From a virus (lineage: Duplodnaviria > Caudoviricetes): a stretch of DNA of 64,000 nt. Each line of letters opens with the position of its first letter. The stretch's first letter is position 1. The notes under the pieces were generated by a model. That model was given only the letters and a program-made list of their open reading frames with translations. It searched no databases and was not told the origin of the DNA. Positions 25,012-40,128 of the stretch are shown one piece after another. The position numbers and the translations under genes are program-made. Location of the stretch: IMG/VR virus record IMGVR_UViG_2873063797_000001, positions 25,659-89,658 of that record. One strand, written 5' to 3'.

Positions 25012-26064
25012 TCAGGCGGCGACGGTAGAGCCGTCCGAAGCAACCGCCGGAATACCGAAGGCCGCAGCAATCACGTGCTGAGCCAGCAGACAGGGGACAG
25101 CATTCCCCACCTGTTCCAGTTGCTTGGTGCGACTCCCCTGGAACGGATGGTCCGCCGGGAAGGACTGGAGAACGGCAGCGTCCCGGACAGACAAGCGGAT
25201 CGTGTCGCGCCGACCGCCCCGGTAGGCGGGCAACTCTTCGGCAGGCACAAGCCGCTTGCAGTCGATCCACCGACCGGCATCGCGCTCGCCGTAGAGGGTG
25301 GCTCGGGCGCCGGAACCACCAACGCAGGAGGGATCCGGACCGCCTGCCGCAGTCCCGACCATCACGGTCAGGGCCGGCCGGTGCGTCATGCCCCATCCGA
25401 TGGCCTCGGCCATCGACACCCATGGCTTCAGTCCAAAGCCTTCTTGGACGTTGGTGGCGCCCTTGCGGTAGCGATGGTGGGTCGGCTCCGGAAGCCGGGC
25501 TGTGCCGTCCAGTGTGGCGACGAGGAACGCCCGAGTACGGGTCTGGGGGACGCCGTACTCCTCGGCGGACAGTCGACCGGTGGCGACGCTGTAGCCCTCC
25601 GGTTGCAGGAGCTCAGCGAACTCCTCCCACACCGAAAGAACGGTGGGCACCTGCTCCAGGAGCAGCGTCCGGTACGGGCGCCCACCGTCCACCGCAGCCA
25701 GAGCCCAGCGCAGTGGCTCCAGGACCAGCCCGGTCCGCTCATCATCGAACCCGGCCAGCGCTTCGGTGATGGCCTGCCGGGCCGCCAGCCGCCGCGCAAG
25801 GTCGAGGATGGTGTCCAAGGCGGCCCGACCGCGGCCCTTCCCGCTGACCGAGAACGTCTGGCAGGGCGGGGAACCGATGAGGTCCGTGGCGTCCGGGAAG
25901 TCGGCGGGCCCATATGTCCGGACATCGCCCTCCACCGTGGCCAGACCCGCAGCGCGGCGGGTCTCGCAGGCGGCATGATCGCGTTCGATGCCGATCACGT
26001 CCAAGCCGAGCCGGGTCGCCCCAACATCCCAGCCGCCGGGGCCAGCGAACAGGTCGACCATCAT
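25012..26064 (-). CDS. DNA (cytosine-5)-methyltransferase
   Basis: DLFAGPGG, SPPCQ, EQV, QTRTR, EQVGNAVP. Confidence 0.92.
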   Translation of the reverse strand: MMVDLFAGPGGWDVGATRLGLDVIGIERDHAACETRRAAGLATVEGDVRTYGPADFPDATDLIGSPPCQTFSVSGKGRGRAALDTILDLARRLAARQAITEALAGFDDERTGLVLEPLRWALAAVDGGRPYRTLLLEQVPTVLSVWEEFAELLQPEGYSVATGRLSAEEYGVPQTRTRAFLVATLDGTARLPEPTHHRYRKGATNVQEGFGLKPWVSMAEAIGWGMTHRPALTVMVGTAAGGPDPSCVGGSGARATLYGERDAGRWIDCKRLVPAEELPAYRGGRRDTIRLSVRDAAVLQSFPADHPFQGSRTKQLEQVGNAVPCLLAQHVIAAAFGIPAVASDGSTVAA

Positions 26065-27317
26065 GCGGCGGCCTCCAAGGCCACGCCGACCGGGATGCCA
26101 GTAGCGGCCGAGACGACGTGCGCCGCCAAGAGCGGCGGAACGGCGTTGCCGACCTGCTCGAACTGCTTCGTCTTCGTGCCCTGGAACGGGTAGTCCGGGC
26201 GGAACGACTGAAGGACAGCGGCCTCGGCGACGGTGATGCGCACGGTGTCGGGGCTGGCGAACTGGGACTCGCCGCCGGCGTCGCGGTTGCGGTGGCCGGG
26301 CGGCGCGATCCGGTTGGTGGCGCACACCGTGGTGGCCGGGCGCTGCTGGACCCACTCAATTCGAGCCGAATTGTTGCCGAAAGCCATGGTCGGCGCGGGC
26401 TCCTCAATGCCGCGTATCGCGGCCCGCTCCTGGTTGCCGTTGCGCAGCACCCACTGCCCACCCGACTTCGAGGTGAAGGCGGGCGCCGGCGCGGTGTACG
26501 GGTCGGCGGTCTGGCGGCTGCCGTCGGCGCGCTGGTCGCGATTCGTGTGGAGCACCCACGAACGGGCCTTCTCAGTGAGCGCCCACGACGGCCGGTCGGC
26601 GGGAAACTCGTTCCCCCCAGCAGTCTTCCGGTCCCCGCGGGTGTTCACGGTCAGCCCCTCGACCCATCCGAGCGCTTCCGCCATGGACACCCACTGCTCC
26701 AGGCGCTCACCGAACAAGTCGTCCGCCGGCTCCTTCGCATGCGTCGGCGCCGGCGCGGTCACCGGCCGAACCCGGGAGGCGATGAGGATCGCCCGCTTGC
26801 GGGTCTGCGGGACGCCGTAGTCGGCAGAGTTGAGGACCCCCACCCACGTGCTGTAGCCCCACTGCTGGAGGTACAGAGCGTACTGACGCCAAAGCGGGAG
26901 AACGTCGGGGACTTCCTCCATGCACACCCACTCGGGGCGGAGGTCGTACAGCCAGCGCATCGGCTCCGCGGCCAGCAACGACCGTTCGTCCTTGCACTGG
27001 GCGACGAGTTCGGCCCGACTGTCCCGGCCGTGCGCCAGGTCGTGGGCCGCCTGGTGCACCAGCGGCTGGTCCGCCAGGCCCCCACGCTTCCCCGCCCGGG
27101 ACCACGCCTGGCACGGCGGTGACGCGATCAGACCCTTGATCCGACCCACGAACGGGGAGGTGGGGTAGGCGGCGACGTCGGTCTGGATGACAGGGTGCCC
27201 GGCGGCGTGCGCGGTCAGGCACGCCGCCCGGTCCCACTCAAGACCGATGTCCGTCAGCCCCAGCAGGCGCAGGCCCTCAGACCAGCCCCGCGGACCGGCG
27301 AACAGGTCGACGATCAC
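26061..27317 (-). CDS. DNA (cytosine-5)-methyltransferase
   Basis: DLFAGPRG, SPPCQ, EEV, QTRKR, EQVGNAVP; longer variable region. Confidence 0.92.
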   Translation of the reverse strand: MIVDLFAGPRGWSEGLRLLGLTDIGLEWDRAACLTAHAAGHPVIQTDVAAYPTSPFVGRIKGLIASPPCQAWSRAGKRGGLADQPLVHQAAHDLAHGRDSRAELVAQCKDERSLLAAEPMRWLYDLRPEWVCMEEVPDVLPLWRQYALYLQQWGYSTWVGVLNSADYGVPQTRKRAILIASRVRPVTAPAPTHAKEPADDLFGERLEQWVSMAEALGWVEGLTVNTRGDRKTAGGNEFPADRPSWALTEKARSWVLHTNRDQRADGSRQTADPYTAPAPAFTSKSGGQWVLRNGNQERAAIRGIEEPAPTMAFGNNSARIEWVQQRPATTVCATNRIAPPGHRNRDAGGESQFASPDTVRITVAEAAVLQSFRPDYPFQGTKTKQFEQVGNAVPPLLAAHVVSAATGIPVGVALEAAA

Positions 27318-28546
27318 GCGGCGCTCCTCTCCGTGTCGCCGCCCTGTGCGGCCTTCTGCTGCTTCACAGCCGTCTCCAGCAGGTCCAGCAGCTCACGGAA
27401 CGGCATCTGCTCCCTTGCCGGCGGCGGGCCCTCCACGTACAGGTCGATGACTTCCTTCACCGTCGCCTCACCACGAATCTGGGTGAGCGCATCAGCGTTC
27501 ATGCGCATGTCGATCGCCTGGAGATACAGCCTGTCCAGGACCTCGTCATCACCACCCTCAGCAAGAACCTCGGCCTCCACGATCCCGCCGTTGCGGGGCC
27601 CGTCGTACGCGGCCTCGGCGGCGGGGTCGATGTCGGAGGGCTCCGGGTCGCCAGACTCGGCGGCGGCCATGGCTTCGGCCCGGGAGGCGACCTGGCGACC
27701 GATGGCGGTGATCTGGTCGAGATACTCCGTCGGGGCACCAGCGTTCTTCGCCTCCTGCCACAGGGCGCGGACCGCGTCGGCGGACTTGGCGGCCTGGGCC
27801 TCGGCAAGGTAGTCGCGGCGCTCCCGCTGCACCGGCGGCGTGTTCGGCGTCGACTGCACAACGCTCATACGCGGCTGCTCCTGGTCGGCGTTGTCCGCCT
27901 GCGCCATCTCCTCGGCCGTGTAGACGCCGGCGAGGTCGTGCGGGAACGCCTTCCGAAGCGCCAACGCTTCGGCGCACTTGGCGATCTGCCCGGCGGGCAT
28001 CTTTGCCCACAGGCCCTTGGGGTTGCCGTCCGGAAACGTCTGCACGTACTCGCGGAACGTGGCGACCGCGGAGAAACGCTGCCCATTGCGGACCACGGTC
28101 ACCTTTGCGGCCGCCGGCGGCTCGTCGGCCAGCCACACGTCACGCCACCGACCGGACGGGTCGCACCACACGGTGTCCTCGTAGCCGTACGTGCCGCCGG
28201 TCTGCGCGGTCACGCGCTGGGCGATGACGCGGTACCCGTCGATGCCGGTCTGCGGCGTGTAGACCTCGCGGCCGTCCTTCTTGCTGAACCGGCCGATGAG
28301 GTAGATCTGCCGGGAGAACGGGTCGAGGCCGGTGCGCTGGCACAGGTGCAGGAAGCCGGACAGTTCGGCGGCGGTCACCTGGTCCTTGATGCCGGATTGG
28401 CGGAGGACGGCGGCCTGCTCGGGCGTCCAGTTGGTCTGGTCGGGGCGGATGGCGAGGGCGCCGCCGGTCTTGGTGGGCTGGTTTTGGGTGTGCGAGGTGG
28501 GGCCCTCCGCCGTGCTGCTGGCGAGGGCCTCGGTGGTAGCAACCAC
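27314..28546 (-). CDS. bet: phage recombination protein Bet (RecT/Redbeta family annealase)
   Basis: FLHLCQRTGLDPFSRQIYLI...QTGIDGYRVIA...LW.KMP...IAKCAEALALRKAFP. Confidence 0.92.
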   Translation of the reverse strand: MVATTEALASSTAEGPTSHTQNQPTKTGGALAIRPDQTNWTPEQAAVLRQSGIKDQVTAAELSGFLHLCQRTGLDPFSRQIYLIGRFSKKDGREVYTPQTGIDGYRVIAQRVTAQTGGTYGYEDTVWCDPSGRWRDVWLADEPPAAAKVTVVRNGQRFSAVATFREYVQTFPDGNPKGLWAKMPAGQIAKCAEALALRKAFPHDLAGVYTAEEMAQADNADQEQPRMSVVQSTPNTPPVQRERRDYLAEAQAAKSADAVRALWQEAKNAGAPTEYLDQITAIGRQVASRAEAMAAAESGDPEPSDIDPAAEAAYDGPRNGGIVEAEVLAEGGDDEVLDRLYLQAIDMRMNADALTQIRGEATVKEVIDLYVEGPPPAREQMPFRELLDLLETAVKQQKAAQGGDTERSAA

Positions 28547-32298: not shown

Positions 32299-32523
32299 AT
32301 GACGCTGGTAGCGGGCGAGTACGAGTTCACGTGCGACGAATGCGACGGGGACGGGAACCTGCAATACATCCGCATTACGACCGAGGGCGACGACGAGCCC
32401 GAACTCGTCTGGGACAAGTGCGACGACTGCCACGGCGAAGGCCGGCTCCTGGTCGACGAGGAAGAAGCGGCCGAGAAGATCCGCTGGGGGCAGACCCCGA
32501 CACGCACCCCTGCCGCCGCCTAG
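32299..32523 (+). CDS. small DnaJ-type zinc-finger protein
   Basis: CDECDGDG and CDDCHGEG (two CxxCxGxG). Confidence 0.7.
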   Translation: MTLVAGEYEFTCDECDGDGNLQYIRITTEGDDEPELVWDKCDDCHGEGRLLVDEEEAAEKIRWGQTPTRTPAAA

Positions 32524-33596
32524 TCTTCGTCCCCGCCCGGAAGACGCTCGGCAATTCGGGCGGCGATGCGGTAGCCGGGGCTGTTGTCGAGGCGGCCGCG
32601 CCGGCGGTCGTAGCGTCGGGTGGTCCGCGGGTCCTTGTGGTCGGCGAAGTCCTGCACGTGGTGGAGCTTGGCGTCGGGCGCGTCCAGGGCGTGGGTGACG
32701 GCGTCGTGCTTGAGGACGTGCGGGTGGAAGGTGGCCGCGTTGGCGATACCCGCCTTGGCCGCTAGGCGCCGCACGAGGCGCCACACGTAGGCCGGGTCCA
32801 GTGGGTTGCCGTTGCGGGTCTGGAACAGTGGTCCCGTGGTGCGGCCCGCGAGGTAGACGTCGATGGCGTGCCCGGTGGCCGGTGGGACGACCTTCGGTTT
32901 GCGGCGGCCACCCTTCAGGCGGACGTTGAGAATGCGGTGCCCCTTGTCGTAGCCGAGGTCGTCGGCTTGGGCGCCGAGGGCGGAGTCGAGGCGTAGCGCC
33001 ACGGTGTAGATGGCGAGCAGGAGGGCGTAGGAGCGGGGTCCGTCCTCGTAGGCCGCGGCGAGCAGGCGCGCGGACTCTTCTTCGGTGCTGCCTTGGGTGT
33101 CGGAGCCGTCCTGGTCCAACTCGGGGCGGGCGACGAGGTCGAAGGGGTCGATGCCGTCTCCGAGGGCACGGACCGCGTACTTGTGGAAGCTGGAGCAGGC
33201 GGAGAGCAGGTTGGCGCGGGCGGCGTCGGAGCGGGGCGGACCGGTGGGGGCCTTCTGCCCGCGGTGGCCGCCCTTGACGGGGACCATGGTGGGTGCGGTT
33301 TCGAGGTGGCGGGAGAACGCTTCGGCGAGGGGGAAGCGGGCTTGGAGCGGGTGGGTGCCGGTCTCGCGGGCGTAGGTGTCCCACACCCGGTATTGGCGGA
33401 CGTACGTCTGCCGGGTGTTCTTCGTCTTCTGCCGGGCAATCCAGGCGCCTACGAGACCGGGGTATGGGTCGCCTGCCGGGTAGTGGCCAGCCAACTCGGT
33501 GGCGAAGTCGAGGGCTTCGGAGGGCCAGTCGTCGGCGGCGCTGCGGGTGCGCGCGGCGAGTTGGCCGCCGCGCGCTCTCGGGACGAGCTCGGTCAT
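32520..33596 (-). CDS. XerC/D-like tyrosine recombinase
   Basis: ALRLDS (R), RLKGG (K), HPHVLKH (H-x-x-K instead of H-x-x-R), ADH, TTRRY (Tyr). Confidence 0.88.
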   Translation of the reverse strand: MTELVPRARGGQLAARTRSAADDWPSEALDFATELAGHYPAGDPYPGLVGAWIARQKTKNTRQTYVRQYRVWDTYARETGTHPLQARFPLAEAFSRHLETAPTMVPVKGGHRGQKAPTGPPRSDAARANLLSACSSFHKYAVRALGDGIDPFDLVARPELDQDGSDTQGSTEEESARLLAAAYEDGPRSYALLLAIYTVALRLDSALGAQADDLGYDKGHRILNVRLKGGRRKPKVVPPATGHAIDVYLAGRTTGPLFQTRNGNPLDPAYVWRLVRRLAAKAGIANAATFHPHVLKHDAVTHALDAPDAKLHHVQDFADHKDPRTTRRYDRRRGRLDNSPGYRIAARIAERLPGGDED

Positions 33597-34517: not shown

Positions 34518-35351
34518 CTAGCGGGCCGGATACAGGACGTCGAACTCTGGCGGCTCCCACCGGCCGAAGGTCGACACGTCGTCCTCGGTGAAGTCGGACG
34601 CCCCGCGAAGGGTCACTCTTCCCATGCGGAGACTTCGGAAGCTGATCCCCGGAGCTTCCATGCCCGCTGCTTTGGCTCGGCTGCGCACGACAATGTCGAT
34701 GCCACCGGGCAGCAGAGCCTTCGCGGCGATGTTCCCCCAGCGGTCGATCTGCCGGAACAAGGGTCCTTCGGCCTGGCCGAGGCCGGCCAGCGTTCCCAGC
34801 CAGCCATCGGTGAACCTGAGCACGCTGGTCGTCTGGTCGCCGCTGTCACGCACAAAGACGCTGGTCTCTGCTCCAGGTAGCCGGACCCGGACGCCGTCGT
34901 GCATCAGGTGTACGGCGTCGGCCGTGCACCGTGACAGCTCCCCTGCCTGGTTGGCCGTGCCCCATGCCAACGTGAGAAGGCAGCCATCCCGCAGGCCAGC
35001 AGGATCGTCACGGCAGGTGGACAGCATGGCCCGCAGCCCAGCCTCGTCGATCGGCACGCTTTTCGGGGTGCGCCGGGTGGACGACGACTCCCACTCCATC
35101 TTCCAGCGGGTACACATCTCCCGAGTCAACGTGGTGTCGAACCAATGCCCGTGGGGCTGCCAGGTTCGTATTGCGTACCAAGCCAGATCCACCGTGTTAG
35201 GGGACATCCGGCGCACCTTGATCAGGTACTCGATGTAGGCGGAAAACGCTTCCATCGTGCAGGGCCTAGGGCTTTCGCTCCGGCTCTCACACCAGTCCTG
35301 GAACTTACGACGCTGGAAGTCGTAGGCCCGCTGCGTCTCTGGCGTCGTCAT
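34518..35351 (-). CDS. degenerate Cre-like tyrosine-recombinase-fold protein
   Basis: TQRAY..WC, LRDGCLLTLAWGTANQAGEL (catalytic R to Q), GPLFRQIDRWG, FRSLRMG (H to R), GRW with Y nine residues later. Confidence 0.75.
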   Translation of the reverse strand: MTTPETQRAYDFQRRKFQDWCESRSESPRPCTMEAFSAYIEYLIKVRRMSPNTVDLAWYAIRTWQPHGHWFDTTLTREMCTRWKMEWESSSTRRTPKSVPIDEAGLRAMLSTCRDDPAGLRDGCLLTLAWGTANQAGELSRCTADAVHLMHDGVRVRLPGAETSVFVRDSGDQTTSVLRFTDGWLGTLAGLGQAEGPLFRQIDRWGNIAAKALLPGGIDIVVRSRAKAAGMEAPGISFRSLRMGRVTLRGASDFTEDDVSTFGRWEPPEFDVLYPAR

Positions 35352-35968
35352 GCAGCACCTCCAGATTGGGCGTTCCACAGCAGGGCGACGACGGTTGATT
35401 CGTACGGCCAGCGCGCCACTCCGCCGTGCTTGATCAGGTGTAGAAGGGTCCGGCTGGGGAGGGTCGCCCCAACCTCCAAGGGGACGCAACCGGGAGGAAT
35501 CTCGCAGGGGCCTATCTCGGCCCGACTGCGTCCGTCATCGGTTTGCGTAGGTGCCGAACCAGTTGAGCGCTGCGCCCGAATGGGCTGAGTCCAGCACAGT
35601 TCCCCGTCAGCATCCGCTCCGGCTTGGTCGGCGTTCAATCGTGCGGAGAAGGCAGGGTGCAGTCGTTTCAGCCGCTCGGCGTTCGTCTCTCGTGCGGCGT
35701 CGGCTAGCGGTATCTCCCCTACCTCCAGAAGCGATACGGCGAATTCGCCCGACATTAGGCCGGTGTGCACGCGCAGGAAGGCCGCAGCCTGCACCGGGGG
35801 CCAATAGGCAGCCCGGCGGAGCGTCTGGCCGATGCGATCCCTGTATGCGGCGGGTATCCGGTCACCGCGCAGATCCTGGCGGGTCTGAGCCAAAGCCTGC
35901 GCGGCGCTTGGGCTGTAGAGCATCTGGTCCAGCAGGCTGCCGGCCATCCGTTCGTGCAGTGTCCTCAT
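35348..35968 (-). CDS. hypothetical protein
   Basis: Coupled to the Cre-like gene; AAGGA upstream. Confidence 0.65.
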   Translation of the reverse strand: MRTLHERMAGSLLDQMLYSPSAAQALAQTRQDLRGDRIPAAYRDRIGQTLRRAAYWPPVQAAAFLRVHTGLMSGEFAVSLLEVGEIPLADAARETNAERLKRLHPAFSARLNADQAGADADGELCWTQPIRAQRSTGSAPTQTDDGRSRAEIGPCEIPPGCVPLEVGATLPSRTLLHLIKHGGVARWPYESTVVALLWNAQSGGAA

Positions 35969-35996
35969 GCCCGTCCTTCCGGAGTGCAGACACATT

Positions 35997-36041
35997 GGAG
36001 TAGTTGAGATACTCTAAGCGTAGCAGTAGTCAAGCTACTCC
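35997..36041. promoter_or_regulatory. inverted repeat in the divergent promoter region
   Basis: GGAGTAG-TTGA ... TCAAGCTACTCC (one bulge); TACGCT -10 lies 6 nt before the alpA-like ATG. Confidence 0.55.
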
Positions 36042-36061
36042 GCCCCGCCTACGCTGAACCC

Positions 36062-36283
36062 ATGGACCTGACCGGCTACCTGACCTCCGACGAAGCAGCA
36101 GAACGGCTCGGCATCAACCGCCAGAGCCTGTACAACCTGGCCAACCGCTCACCGGATTTCCCGAAGCCCAAGAAGGTTGGGCGGACGTCCCTCTGGCCAG
36201 AGCACGGCGTAGACGAGTGGCGCGAGAAGCACCCGAAGCGACAGACGAGAAAGGGGACAGAGGATGCCGACCAAGCCCCGTAA
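36062..36283 (+). CDS. AlpA/excisionase-like HTH protein
   Basis: LTSDEAAERLGINRQSLYNL...FPKPKKVGRTSLW. Confidence 0.88.
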   Translation: MDLTGYLTSDEAAERLGINRQSLYNLANRSPDFPKPKKVGRTSLWPEHGVDEWREKHPKRQTRKGTEDADQAP

Positions 36284-36509
36284 GCCGTGGCGTGTGATCG
36301 TGACGGGTCCGGACGTGCGTGCCGAGTCGGACCACACCAGCGAGGCCAAGGCGTACGCGCTGGTTCGTGCCTCCCTCGGTGAGGAAAGCCCCGCCGACAC
36401 TGCGCGGGTTGAGCAGTGGGAGGGCGGCCGGTGGTGGCACTTCGAGACCGTGCGCGCCGACGAGATCCGCGCGGCCCAGGCCGCCATCCGCAACATCGAC
36501 GAGAAGTGA
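36264..36509 (+). CDS. array gene 1, hypothetical
   Basis: 81 aa, ends DEK-stop within repeat 1. Confidence 0.75.
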   Translation: MPTKPRKPWRVIVTGPDVRAESDHTSEAKAYALVRASLGEESPADTARVEQWEGGRWWHFETVRADEIRAAQAAIRNIDEK

Positions 36510-36520
36510 GGACACCGACC

Positions 36521-36811
36521 ATGCTGACCCTGCACCCGATCACCGGCGGCATCCGCGACGGACGCCACCAGCAGTACCCCACCCCCAACCTCCCGGCCCG
36601 CCCGGTCGCTTCGCAGGCGGAAGCTGAGGAGTCCGCCGTCCGTCTGTTCCGCGCCTACGGGGCGATCAGCTACCTGCGGCTCACCGACAGCGCTGGGGAG
36701 GAGGTCCGGGAGTACCGTCGCGGCGACTTCTTCCAGTCCACGTCGCCCCTACGGGACGTACACCGCCGCGTGGTCGACCAGGACCTCGGGTGCCGCGCCA
36801 CCGAGAAGTGA
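36521..36811 (+). CDS. array gene 2, hypothetical
   Basis: 96 aa, ATG in repeat 1, ends RATEK. Confidence 0.75.
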   Translation: MLTLHPITGGIRDGRHQQYPTPNLPARPVASQAEAEESAVRLFRAYGAISYLRLTDSAGEEVREYRRGDFFQSTSPLRDVHRRVVDQDLGCRATEK

Positions 36812-36822
36812 GGGAACCGACC

Positions 36823-36999
36823 ATGAGCGAGATGGAGTCACGGATCGCGTCGCTGGAAGCAACGAACAGCGACCTGCGGAGCGAGAACCGGGAGATCCGA
36901 AGGGAGATCTTGCGCGCGCTGCGGTTCATCGAGAAGGGTGACGTCGGCTCCGCGCAGACCCTCATGCACCGCCTGTCCCTCAGCGTCGCCGAGAAGTGA
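36823..36999 (+). CDS. array gene 3, short coiled-coil protein
   Basis: 58 aa, ends VAEK. Confidence 0.7.
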   Translation: MSEMESRIASLEATNSDLRSENREIRREILRALRFIEKGDVGSAQTLMHRLSLSVAEK

Positions 37000-37006
37000 G
37001 GCCATC

Positions 37007-37177
37007 ATGAGCACTCCGACCGAACTCCGGACCCGTGCCGCCGAGCTGGAGAACCGCGTGCCTCCGGTCACGGCCGGCCCCCGTACCGACGACGAGCGGA
37101 TGTGGCTGGAGAAGGCCGCCGCCCTCCGCGACGAGGCCGACCAGCTCGACGCCGCCGACCGCGCCACCGAGAAGTGA
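37007..37177 (+). CDS. array gene 4, short helical protein
   Basis: 56 aa, ends RATEK. Confidence 0.7.
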   Translation: MSTPTELRTRAAELENRVPPVTAGPRTDDERMWLEKAAALRDEADQLDAADRATEK

Positions 37178-37188
37178 GGACACCGATC

Positions 37189-37350
37189 ATGGCCTACACC
37201 GCCTACATGCCGCCCGTGGGTGGTGGCAAGCAGAGCCACCCCGAGATCACCGACCACTGCCGCCCTGACAACGAGCCCACCCACCCGGAGCACGACTACC
37301 CGACTGCCGGTCCCGCGCGCTGCAATCGCTGCGGCGCCACCGAGAAGTGA
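37189..37350 (+). CDS. array gene 5, small Cys/His protein
   Basis: 53 aa, HC...H...CNRC, ends GATEK. Confidence 0.7.
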   Translation: MAYTAYMPPVGGGKQSHPEITDHCRPDNEPTHPEHDYPTAGPARCNRCGATEK

Positions 37351-37360
37351 GGACACGACC

Positions 37361-37543
37361 ATGACCACGAGCTGGCCGGAGCGGGTGCGACTCCCGCGCG
37401 GCCGCCACACTCACGCCGTCGGCTACGCGGCTGGCCACGCCGACCGCGTCACCGCCTGCGCCCGGAACGCCGAACCCGGGGACTTCCTGGACGACGACAG
37501 CCCCATCACCTGCCCCGCCTGCCAACGCGTCACCGAGAAGTGA
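37361..37543 (+). CDS. array gene 6, small zinc-knuckle-like protein
   Basis: 60 aa, H...C...CPAC, ends RVTEK. Confidence 0.7.
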   Translation: MTTSWPERVRLPRGRHTHAVGYAAGHADRVTACARNAEPGDFLDDDSPITCPACQRVTEK

Positions 37544-37554
37544 GGACACCGACC

Positions 37555-38448
37555 ATGGGACGAGAGATCCGCCGCGTACCGCTCGACTTCGAATGGCCGC
37601 TCAACAAGGTCTGGGAGGGCTTCCTGATGCCCGACCGCTTCGACGAAGTCGACTGCTCCGACTGCAAGAACGGCTACTCGCCGCAGGCCCAGAACTTGTA
37701 TGACCTCTGGTACGGCTACCTGCCGTTCGACCCGGCCAGCACCGGGTCGACGCCGTGGCGCCACGACAGCCCAGGCGTGAGGGCGTTCGCCGAGCGCAAC
37801 GTCACCCAGGCGCCGGACTACTACGGCAGCGGCGAGGCCGCCATCGTGCGCGAAGGTCAGCGGCTGGCGAGCCTGTGGAACGGCCAGTGGTCCCACCACC
37901 TCTCCCAAGAGGACGTGGATGCGCTGGTCGCCGCTGACCGGCTTCGCGACTTCACTCACACCTGGAGCCGCGAGGACGGCTGGCAGCCGAAGGAACCGTC
38001 GGTCGCACCGACGGCCGCCGAGGTCAACGAGTGGTCACTGCGCGGCATGGGACACGACAGCATCAACGCCCACGTGGTGATCGAAGCCCGCTGCGAGCGC
38101 GAGGGTGTCGAGACCCGGTGCCCGACCTGCAAGGGCCACGGCAGTATGGAGAAGTACGAGGGACAGCGCGCCGAGGCCGAAGCGTGGGAGCCCACGGACC
38201 CGCCGAAGGGCGACGGCTGGCAGCTCTGGGAGACCGTGAGCGAAGGCTCGCCCGTCAGCCCCGTGTTCGCGACAGCCGATGATCTGGCCGGTTGGATGTC
38301 TGACCCGGAGCGCGGCGACCGTTGGGTGCCGGGCGACGTGGCCCGCAAGTTCATCGACGACGGTTGGGCGCCGACAGGAGTTGTCACGCCGGGACGTGGC
38401 TACTCGTCCGGCGTTGAGGCCGTTGGATGGTCTGAGAGTCAGTACTGA
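37555..38448 (+). CDS. array gene 7, conserved-looking phage hypothetical protein
   Basis: 297 aa; MGREIRRVPLDF.WP, CSDC.NG, CPTCKGHG, GWQLWETVSEGSPVSPVF. Confidence 0.85.
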   Translation: MGREIRRVPLDFEWPLNKVWEGFLMPDRFDEVDCSDCKNGYSPQAQNLYDLWYGYLPFDPASTGSTPWRHDSPGVRAFAERNVTQAPDYYGSGEAAIVREGQRLASLWNGQWSHHLSQEDVDALVAADRLRDFTHTWSREDGWQPKEPSVAPTAAEVNEWSLRGMGHDSINAHVVIEARCEREGVETRCPTCKGHGSMEKYEGQRAEAEAWEPTDPPKGDGWQLWETVSEGSPVSPVFATADDLAGWMSDPERGDRWVPGDVARKFIDDGWAPTGVVTPGRGYSSGVEAVGWSESQY

Positions 38449-38459
38449 CCACCGCGCGA

Positions 38460-38496
38460 ACGGGGCCCCGGCTGAGGAAAGCAGCCGGGGCCCCGT
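38460..38496. terminator. bidirectional terminator closing the array
   Basis: Perfect 15-bp stem ACGGGGCCCCGGCTG/CAGCCGGGGCCCCGT. Confidence 0.8.
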
Positions 38497-38507
38497 CACG
38501 TCTGACC

Positions 38508-39089
38508 CTATCTGGGCAGGTCGGTATGGTGGAAGTTCTGCCAGGAGCGGGAGGCGGTCGGCCCGCGCTGGCCCTGATACCGGGAGCCGCGTAGCGCGCT
38601 CCCGTACGGGTGCTCCGCCGGGCTGGTCATCTGAATCACCGCAAGCTGCCCGATCTTCATGCCCGGCCACAGCAGCAGGGGCAGGGTGGCCTGGTTCGAC
38701 AGCTCCAGCGTGACGTGGCCCTCGAACCCGGGGTCGATGAACCCGGCCGTGGAGTGCGTGGCCAGGCCCAGCCGCCCCAGCGAACTCTTGCCCTCCAATC
38801 GGGCTGCCAGGTACCGGGGCAGCCGGACCCGCTCGTAGGTGGAGGCGAGGACGAACTCGTCGGGGTGCAGGATGAACGGTTCGCCGTCGGGGACCTCGAC
38901 CAGGCGCGTCAGGTCGTCCTGCTGGACCGCGGGGTCGATGTGGGACGCCCGGTGGTTCTCGAACACTCGGAAGGTGCGGTCGAGGCGGACGTCGATGCTG
39001 GCCGGCTGGAGCATCGCCTCCTCGTACGGGGTGACGCCGAGCTGGCCGCGGGATATCGCGTCGTGGAGGTCTCTGTCGGAGAGGAGCAC
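38508..39089 (-). CDS. dcd: dCTP deaminase
   Basis: MLLSDRD...[10 protein letters not shown]...[30 protein letters not shown]...YQGQRGPT. Confidence 0.95.
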
Positions 39090-39127
39090 GCCGCGAGCCT
39101 ACGACCGGCTCGGGCGCCGCCTTCCCC

Positions 39128-39301
39128 CTACTTCTTCTGCTGCTCCCGCCACGCCTCCAGTTCCTTCTTGCAGAGCACGCACAGGGGGTTCCCGCCGGGC
39201 CCGTACCGGTGGGTGGGGTGCTGGCATTTCACGCAAGGCCCGACGTACGACGGTGCGCACTCGGGGGCCGGCGGGGCGGGTCTCTCAGCGGTGACGTTCA
39301 C
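39128..39301 (-). CDS. small zinc-finger protein
   Basis: CVKC...CVLC; GTG 6 nt after TACGAT. Confidence 0.6.
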   Translation of the reverse strand: MNVTAERPAPPAPECAPSYVGPCVKCQHPTHRYGPGGNPLCVLCKKELEAWREQQKK

Positions 39302-39393
39302 CCTGGAATCGTACGACTGTGCAGGGGGAACACCGGCCGACCATCGCCGGGACACTGGGGGTACCGCCCTTCCCCGTGATCGGAGCCCTTCCC

Positions 39394-40128
39394 ATGCCCG
39401 AGCAGCCCCCGGTTGAGCCCACGTTTCGCAGCGACGTCACCGTGCAGCTGGTCAAGGCGACCGCGGAGGACGCGCACGTCCTCTGGTCCGCCCGCGTCTC
39501 CACCCTCGGCGAGCAGTCCCTCGACCAGATCGGCACCGACCCCGAGCGCTCCAAGGGCCTCATCAACTACCTCATGCGAGATCGTCATGGGAGCCCGTTC
39601 GAGGCGACTAGCATGACGTTTTTCATCAGCGCCCCGATCTTCGTGTTCCGGGAGTTCATGCGGCACCGCGTCGGCTGGTCCTACAACGAGGAATCAGGCC
39701 GCTACCGGGAGCTGGAGCCCGTCTTCTACGTCCCCGGCTACGACCGGAAGCTGGTCCAGGAGGGCAAGCCGGGCCAGTACCGGTTCGTGGAGGGCAGCCC
39801 GGATCAGCACTATGCGATGCGGAAGGCGATGAAGGCGTCGTACCGGCAGGCGTACGCCTTCTACCAGCGGCTCCTCTGTGAGGGGATCGCCCGGGAGGTG
39901 GCCCGGTCGGTACTGCCGGTGGGCCTGTACTCGTCGGCCTACGCGACGTGCAACGCGCGGTCGCTGATGCACTTCCTCGGCCTGCGCACCACCCACCCCG
40001 ACGCGGCCACACCCTCGTACCCGCAGCGGGAGATCGAGATGGTCGGCGAGGCCATGGAAGCCGAGTGGGCCAAGCTCATGCCCCTCACGCACGCGGCGTT
40101 CAACGCGAACGGCCGCGTCGCCCCCTAG
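39394..40128 (+). CDS. thyX: FAD-dependent thymidylate synthase
   Basis: RHGSPFE, RHR-x3-SYNEESGRY ThyX signature, NARSLMHFL. Confidence 0.95.
   Translation: MPEQPPVEPTFRSDVTVQLVKATAEDAHVLWSARVSTLGEQSLDQIGTDPERSKGLINYLMRDRHGSPFEATSMTFFISAPIFVFREFMRHRVGWSYNEESGRYRELEPVFYVPGYDRKLVQEGKPGQYRFVEGSPDQHYAMRKAMKASYRQAYAFYQRLLCEGIAREVARSVLPVGLYSSAYATCNARSLMHFLGLRTTHPDAATPSYPQREIEMVGEAMEAEWAKLMPLTHAAFNANGRVAP

Follow-up and report, generated by a model that had tools for sequence, protein, structure and literature searches.

The array between positions 36062 and 38496 of a 64,000-nucleotide stretch of viral DNA (Duplodnaviria; Caudoviricetes; positions 25,659 to 89,658 of IMG/VR record IMGVR_UViG_2873063797_000001; hereafter the window) consists of eight co-directional open reading frames (ORFs), and six of their boundaries carry the exact 11-mer GAGAAGTGAGG. 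This core is part of a repeat of ~35 bp, here called the joint, that closes one small gene and opens the next. The same joint is conserved throughout a family of Streptomyces phage-plasmids, is complementary to the 3' end of 16S rRNA, strings genes into chains and forms the boundaries of mosaicism between arrays. We consider it probable that it is a stop-start-associated coupling joint, specific to this family, that also provides short homology for in-register exchange of genes.

The joint and its distribution among Streptomyces phage-plasmids

The six copies of GAGAAGTGAGG lie on the + strand and start at 36501, 36803, 36991, 37169, 37342 and 37535 (successive distances of 302, 188, 178, 173 and 193 bp). 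An initial annotation, made from the letters of the window alone, had described these copies and intervals as a repeat of stop codon, ribosome-binding site (RBS) and start codon that gives unrelated proteins a shared -EK tail, and every coordinate and spacing was reproduced exactly. In all six, GAG AAG TGA ends the upstream ORF with its EK codons and stop, and GG (completing GAGG), a spacer of 5-9 nt and ATG begin the next. The protein tails at the six joints are, in order, IDEK, ATEK, VAEK, ATEK, ATEK and VTEK. The degenerate copy that had been proposed at 36247 (GAGAAAGGGGACAGAGGATG) is indeed the positional homologue of a true joint, as an intact joint ends the helix-turn-helix (HTH) gene at this place in the relatives L049 and L062 and in pCQ3 (also listed: L039), but its TGA is lost and the HTH ORF of the window continues to 36283.

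The core is rare outside the array. Allowing up to one mismatch, the window contains only the six array copies; the shuffled-window control gave a mean of 0.81 copies, and none of 100 shuffles reached six. The genome (8.39 Mb) comprises two contigs, the chromosome C1 (8.30 Mb, 72% GC) and the plasmid C2 (89,658 bp, 69% GC), and the window sits on C2 and reaches its last base. Across both contigs, the exact matches to GAGAAGTGAGG are the six array copies only, with none in the 8.30-Mb chromosome. Two one-mismatch matches occur elsewhere on C2, both without spacer and start codon, and a search of the rest of the plasmid for an antisense or second partner of the joint found none.

A pattern scan of genomes returned 26 loci, of which 20 were from Streptomyces and the other six were single, chance-level 18-mer matches in unrelated taxa; a scan of IMG/VR returned 43 stretches, mostly from contigs of 85-93 kb. 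Joint arrays are present on ~35 distinct Streptomyces replicons, mostly of 85-93 kb (pSLE1, pCQ3 and others), with 2-8 joints per array. A 38-nt joint query matched 22 Streptomyces plasmids in PLSDB and had no match in 50,697 deposited phage genomes. Further arrays, which the initial annotation had suggested looking for in Streptomyces and actinophage genomes, do exist on these replicons, and their cargo and its order differ.

The family consensus is GACCGCGCCACC-GAGAAGTGAGG-ACACCGACC-ATG. Written as codons, the ~35-bp unit derived from 120 distinct copies reads GAC CGC GCC ACC, then GAG AAG TGA GG, then ACACCGACC and ATG. The non-coding spacer is conserved at 70-88% per position in these copies, and conservation ends sharply after the ATG and fades upstream of about -14. 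All joint copies have the same orientation and lie within non-structural operons, and of 83 pairs of consecutive joints, 72 enclose an ORF that opens at the first joint and terminates at the TGA of the second. At one core in the array L109 the TGA is changed to GGA, and the ORF extends to an ATGA overlap. The consensus also contains an internal direct repeat, CACCGA-N10-CACCGA, around GAAGTGAGGA (for example, window 37165-37186), which may be a protein-binding site or may be due to chance.

Two other junctions came up in the family-level genome search: GAGAAGTGAGGTCGGATG(ATG), which recurs at a single chromosomal locus across many genomes from one related genus, and GAGAAGTGAGGGGCTCACGACGATG, in many genomes of another genus. 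Both are single conserved gene boundaries, not arrays.

Complementarity to 16S rRNA and the level of conservation

The 3' end of the 16S rRNA reads ...GGATCACCTCCTTTCT (also given as ...GGAUCACCUCCUUUCU). Against its last ten bases, AGAAGUGAGG in the joint forms eight Watson-Crick pairs and one G-U pair, with one mismatch, and therefore the stop codon lies inside an extended Shine-Dalgarno (SD) sequence, with the next AUG ~9 nt further on. The duplex between joint and 16S rRNA has an energy of -9.5 to -10.6 kcal/mol, compared to -6.5 +/- 3.4 kcal/mol for random 25-mers. The joints are unstructured, and their accessibility is moderately above that of the rest of the operon. As SD strength and RNA accessibility are both only moderate, an exceptional level of either was rejected as the sole explanation of the joint.

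A stop codon placed within the SD sequence would fit termination-coupled re-initiation, and it is from this layout that we infer coupling. The UGA within the 10-nt AGAAGUGAGG would pair with the 16S 3' tail, the next AUG would follow after a fixed spacer of ~9 nt, and a ribosome ending one small gene would thereby be held at the start of the next. The operon would then be translated as a coupled chain off one, possibly leaderless, transcript.

Conservation of the joint exceeds what SD pairing needs, which is the argument that Pope et al. made for the start-associated sequence (SAS) of Cluster K mycobacteriophages (PMC3203893). The joint could accordingly be purely regulatory or translational, a start-associated sequence read by a phage- or host-encoded RNA- or DNA-binding factor. 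We regard this as rather unlikely. Such a factor, which might be a translational repressor, a nuclease or the HTH leader protein, would switch the accessory genes together; the motif would persist as a requirement for the expression of each gene, and the mosaicism described below would result from illegitimate recombination. The single orientation of the joints, their place in non-structural operons and the absence of the motif from the host chromosome all agree with this, and the CACCGA-N10-CACCGA repeat could bind a protein. However, no candidate factor was identified, terminal copies are kept without a downstream gene, and uniform junctions over >70 unrelated cargo families, with similarity stopping inside the joints, would be hard to obtain from random breakpoints.

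Could the conserved feature be the peptide instead? In that case, a C-terminal (D/G)R(A/T/D)(T/D)EK tag would direct the small proteins to one partner, protease or export pathway that they share, with the spacer serving simply as a good RBS. The core is translated as a C-terminus in most arrays, and DRATEK and DRTTEK are the most frequent tails among 121 copies. Nevertheless, tail residues 1-4 vary freely through single-base changes (with A/T/D/V/N and T/D/N/A/S/I among the residues found), and the non-coding spacer is as strongly conserved as the tail. Copies also stand behind an ORF's own stop in L038, L045, L050, L057 and L102, and are untranslated at L038 3878, L045 515 and L102 2362; eight terminal copies have no start downstream and adjoin a terminator hairpin. 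Moreover, the 297-aa cargo family lacks the tail in the window and has the tail HADDEK, together with a joint, in L072. A peptide tag is therefore improbable, and the comparison favours conservation acting on the nucleic acid. The initial annotation had likewise preferred a role at the DNA or RNA level, for which the conserved spacer and the untranslated copies speak, although its additional argument from synonymous positions is weak, since all six tail codons are preferred Streptomyces codons anyway.

Mosaic arrays and probable exchange at the joints

The 149 array ORFs fell into 71 clusters, 43 of them singletons, and where cargo families are shared their neighbours and order differ between elements. 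Every cassette of the window has its own homologue elsewhere, and in each case similarity starts and ends within the flanking joints (Table 1). For L037, the cassette is 94.6% identical to that of the window while the adjacent dcd-thyX backbone is 76.8% identical, which argues for recent transfer. Other pairs of loci show cassette-sized islands of 90-98% identity in a background of <90%, and 17 of 32 such high-identity blocks end at most 12 nt from the ATG of a joint. The initial annotation had proposed that genes are gained, lost and reordered at the repeats, as opposed to being held in the same order by all relatives. At the level of the family, related phage-plasmid arrays hold different genes in different orders, and this part of the proposal stands; rapid shuffling is not supported, as the copies of this array in 13 Logan contigs are identical.

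Homologous recombination within the 23-35-bp joint would be the simplest account of this mosaicism, as it would keep the register automatically. Each gene boundary carries the same 23-35 bp, which could be used as short homology. Recombination between co-resident or co-infecting relatives, or between joints within one array, would replace, add or delete whole genes in register, and exchange at this level would account for the mosaic arrays across the family. We infer this mechanism, and with it the enzymes that would act, from where similarity begins and ends. More tentatively, the joint may be a maintained, recombinase-independent in-register cassette joint, that is, one standard 35-bp interface for family-wide exchange of small genes with immediate coupled translation; this we offer as a possibility only.

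Several results weigh against reading the joint as a coupling element and a site of exchange. SD strength is average to good (rank ~17-21 of 69 plasmid genes), and so translation alone fails to explain the exact conservation of 11 nt plus spacer. Part of the core's conservation is built in, since the core was itself the pattern by which the loci were retrieved, and a spacer-based search is still biased, because its loci were fetched with core plus spacer. Of at least 23 Logan contigs read, 13 were fetched, all of them consensus assemblies; over up to 6.5 kb, each of the 13 matches the window at 100% identity with an unchanged gene order, and no recombination product between joints was seen among them. 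Concerted evolution of joints within arrays gave no signal (permutation p 0.33). Spacer variants track neither neighbour robustly and do not locate the crossover point. With the window's RecT-like single-strand annealing protein (SSAP) as query, its gene was found in only one of five array-bearing relatives. Finally, similarity blocks that end at gene boundaries could reflect illegitimate recombination plus selection.

As the Logan contigs are identical, the plasmid (or its strain) must have been sequenced repeatedly; the exact array proteins are indexed in ~40 blocks of public sequencing runs. Pairs of close relatives differing by one cassette were not found in species-level collections, and the sole near-identical pair, L065/L093, has the same array. 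An apparent linkage of the spacer to the upstream cargo (1.86 versus 3.49 differences) was rejected, as it was driven by conserved leader families. The annealing protein that the initial annotation had called a Bet annealase does exist, but is RecT-like (27314-28546, - strand), and its detection in one of five relatives gives no support to the link that had been drawn between it and the array.

The initial annotation had also likened the array to an integron. In such a site-specific system a tyrosine recombinase and the AlpA/Xis-like protein would move units of ORF plus joint at the joints. Two tyrosine-recombinase-like genes do lie upstream of the array (32520-33596 and 34518-35351, both - strand), and in the window, L037, L038 and L039 such genes lie divergent to the array at a distance of 0.6-3.5 kb upstream; the terminal copies that no gene follows suggest, in addition, that the joint would travel at the 3' end of a cassette. 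However, neither an inverted repeat in the joint consensus nor an attC-type hairpin was found: as single-stranded DNA, the six joints fold at -2.7 to -7.5 kcal/mol, with z scores of +0.2 to +1.3 in five and -0.66 in one. Against the integron integrase model TIGR02249, 32520-33596 scored 19.2 bits (cut-off 265 bits) and 34518-35351 had no match; both fall below all NCBIfam Xer cut-offs, the latter matching XerC models in its N-terminal half only. Furthermore, recombinases are missing from the vicinity of three arrays (L109, on a 639-kb plasmid, and the second ones of pCQ3 and pSLE1), and no variant array was seen among the identical re-sequenced copies. Thus, the array is integron-like in layout and fails the defining integron tests, and we consider a site-specific mechanism highly improbable.

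That the array genes are old tandem duplicates of one ancestor, with only their ends still similar, can practically be dismissed: paralogues occur occasionally within an array (cluster 21 twice in L057), but the seven window proteins share no similarity over their range of 53-297 aa, conservation stops exactly at the ATG, and the same cassettes stand beside other neighbours in other arrays.

Array genes, replicon and comparison with known systems

Table 1. Features of the array, joint-bounded similarity blocks and further arrays (window coordinates unless stated)
Feature	Position	Strand	Remarks
Putative promoter TAGTCA-N17-TACGCT	36027-36061	+	ends 6 nt before first ATG; read from sequence only
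Leader gene, 73-aa HTH_17/excisionase-like DNA-binding protein	36062-36283	+	Pfam HTH_17 1.1e-8; PHROG DNA-binding/excisionase families
Degenerate joint	36247-36266	+	stop lost; HTH ORF overlaps next gene by 20 nt
81-aa gene, cluster 3	36264-36509	+	ends NIDEK-TGA; homologues L049, L054, L062, L080, L097, L108
Joint 1: tail codons, GAGAAGTGAGG, ACACCGACC, ATG	36489-36523	+
96-aa cargo gene, cluster 15	36521-36811	+	ends CRATEK; 88% nt identity to L047, 36500-36829 only
Joint 2	36791-36825	+
58-aa coiled-coil-like cargo gene, singleton cluster 28	36823-36999	+	ends LSVAEK
Joint 3	36979-37009	+	short spacer CCATC
56-aa cargo gene, cluster 4	37007-37177	+	ends DRATEK; 88.6% identity to L077 over 36989-37194
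Joint 4	37157-37191	+	nearest of the copies to family consensus
53-aa Cys-containing cargo gene, cluster 8	37189-37350	+	ends CGATEK; joint-bounded homologues in L075, L108
Joint 5	37330-37363	+
60-aa Cys-rich cargo gene, cluster 9	37361-37543	+	ends QRVTEK; 94.6% identity to L037 over 37336-37558
Joint 6	37523-37557	+
297-aa terminal cargo gene, cluster 16	37555-38448	+	no EK tail; large family, function unassigned
G+C-rich hairpin between array and convergent dcd gene	38454-38501	.	no U-tract
Similarity block	36500-36829		relative L047
Similarity block	36989-37194		relative L077
Similarity block	37152-37372		relative L075 (L108 over 37153-37358)
Similarity block	37336-37558		relatives L037 (94.6%), L092
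Similarity block	37526-38372		relative L072 (L105 over 37535-38373)
Second array L124	pSLE1 48.1-48.5 kb		no dcd or recombinase nearby
Second array L123	pCQ3 83.1-83.9 kb		no dcd or recombinase nearby
Array L109	NZ_CP109461.1 606.9-608.6 kb, 639-kb plasmid		no dcd or recombinase nearby

The seven joint-linked products of the array fall into seven separate similarity clusters, and the G+C content at third codon positions of their genes (0.86-0.92) is that of the Streptomyces coding bias. None of the cargo genes matched Pfam, PHROGs or NCBIfam, and the anti-defence role that the initial annotation had thought likely for the cargo gained no support from these searches. The largest product, the 297-aa protein, has 2,942 homologues, all annotated as hypothetical and in unnamed Atlas clusters, with DNA-level matches to its family in jumbo Caulobacter and Microbacterium phages. 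Its invariant cysteines are the pairs C34/C37 and C189/C192, plus C180, and its final ~20 residues, where the EK joint stands in relatives, are disordered. A confident AF2 model (pLDDT 83) had no match in the PDB at E <= 0.001.

The leader gene bears out its earlier description as AlpA/Xis-like through its Pfam and PHROG assignments, while TIGR01764 scored below cut-off. The other flanking signals that had been described fared less clearly. The promoter, said to be leaderless, can be read directly before the first ATG, but the consensus scan did not call it. What had been described as a perfect terminator is a stable 14-bp G+C stem (38461-38495, -40.4 kcal/mol, z -4.8) but lacks a U-tract and was not called either; the hairpin is kept at the array end in L047, L078 and L106 and is likely to be a bidirectional terminator. 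The scan found no promoter- or terminator-like site over 35300-38700, which includes the array and its joints, its rules covering neither Streptomyces promoters nor tail-less hairpins. Rfam gave only a chance miRNA match (E 0.48) over 35500-38800.

C2 encodes virion and lysis proteins (major head protein, portal, tape measure, tail-fibre-like proteins and endolysin), as well as ParA, ParB, a replication initiator, a DNA methyltransferase and tyrosine recombinases. As virion, lysis and partition genes are all present, C2 is a phage-plasmid, and at its size it has the make-up of replicons of the pZL12/pSLE1 type (~85-93 kb with these three classes of genes). Its relatives in PLSDB are Streptomyces plasmids of 85-100 kb, including pCQ3 and pSLE1, and nucleotide similarity to these and others is patchy. 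A published description of pSLE1, which carries joints, notes its high synteny with the plasmid-phage pZL12 (PMC4487206). Directly after the array, window 38508-40128 holds a dCTP deaminase gene (dcd, - strand) and a ThyX thymidylate synthase gene (+ strand). This pair is a phage-plasmid-borne module for dUMP/dTMP supply, and its position next to the array is conserved in many relatives.

Shuffling of small accessory genes in phages is usually ascribed to rare illegitimate recombination, and conserved boundary sequences that permit homologous exchange are seldom documented. Here, one 35-bp interface is common to >70 unrelated gene families on ~35 replicons, with mosaic boundaries on it, and the system offers a specific case that can be tested in a host amenable to genetics. 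If the joint does prove to be an in-register cassette joint, it would be a third gene-cassette platform beside integrons and the promoter-early stem-loop (PeSL) cassettes of T4-type phages, possibly with a dedicated joint-binding factor. It could also serve as a standard part for translationally coupled operons in high-GC actinomycetes, and the arrays point to a pool of uncharacterised accessory genes in phage-plasmids.

We found no description of the joint in the searchable literature, a search that did not reach the original pZL12 paper. Four known systems come closest to it. Cluster A stoperators are also asymmetric repeats of the 13-bp class at gene boundaries, oriented with transcription. 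They are, however, repressor-binding sites spread over a whole genome, whereas joints occur in just one or two operons, at a set position relative to stop and start codons, and have no known link to a repressor. Integron attC cassettes are similar in that unrelated, promoterless small genes, each with a 3' repeat, follow one upstream promoter in one direction, and in the window the recombinase genes are upstream and divergent. The cargo here does vary over ~35 replicons, and the single promoter is a putative one. In contrast to integrons, the joints are conserved in sequence and not in structure, with no attC hairpin, IntI-type integrase or attI, and some arrays have no adjacent recombinase.

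PeSL cassettes likewise place repeated regulatory motifs around small ORFan genes in hyperplastic regions, and recombination between these motifs explains the gain, loss and replacement of genes among related phages (PMC2839356; PMC4122927). The joints resemble PeSLs in that similarity blocks between relatives end at them. A PeSL, however, combines a sigma-70 promoter with a terminator stem-loop and makes each gene its own transcription unit, whereas the joint is an unstructured, non-palindromic translational joint without promoter- or terminator-like sites, lies inside one transcript and keeps the reading register. Mini-circles have been shown for PeSLs, with nothing comparable for the joints.

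The SAS and extended SAS (ESAS) of Cluster K mycobacteriophages and Microbacterium cluster EF phages (PMC3203893; PMC7302621) are short asymmetric motifs with an SD core, a few nt before the ATG and in one orientation. Restricted to small non-structural genes from numerous unrelated families, they hardly occur in the host genome and show more conservation than rRNA pairing requires; some copies also contain the upstream stop. The joints show the same pattern: an SD core 3-9 nt before mostly ATG starts, in one orientation, in the six window copies and nearly all 120 family copies, with 71 cargo clusters and no chromosomal copy of the core. The two are nevertheless analogous, not homologous, as the Cluster K consensus is GGGATAGGAGCCC and that of the joint is GAGAAGTGAGG plus ACACCGACC. 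The joint invariably includes the stop and the final 2-6 codons, which gives the shared EK tail, and forms tight, uninterrupted chains, whereas SAS are scattered over half a genome. Its hosts are phage-plasmids, it has no ESAS-like inverted repeats, and joint-bounded mosaicism is documented here. By analogy with these systems, the joint is best read as resembling a start-associated sequence in function and a PeSL in modular shuffling.

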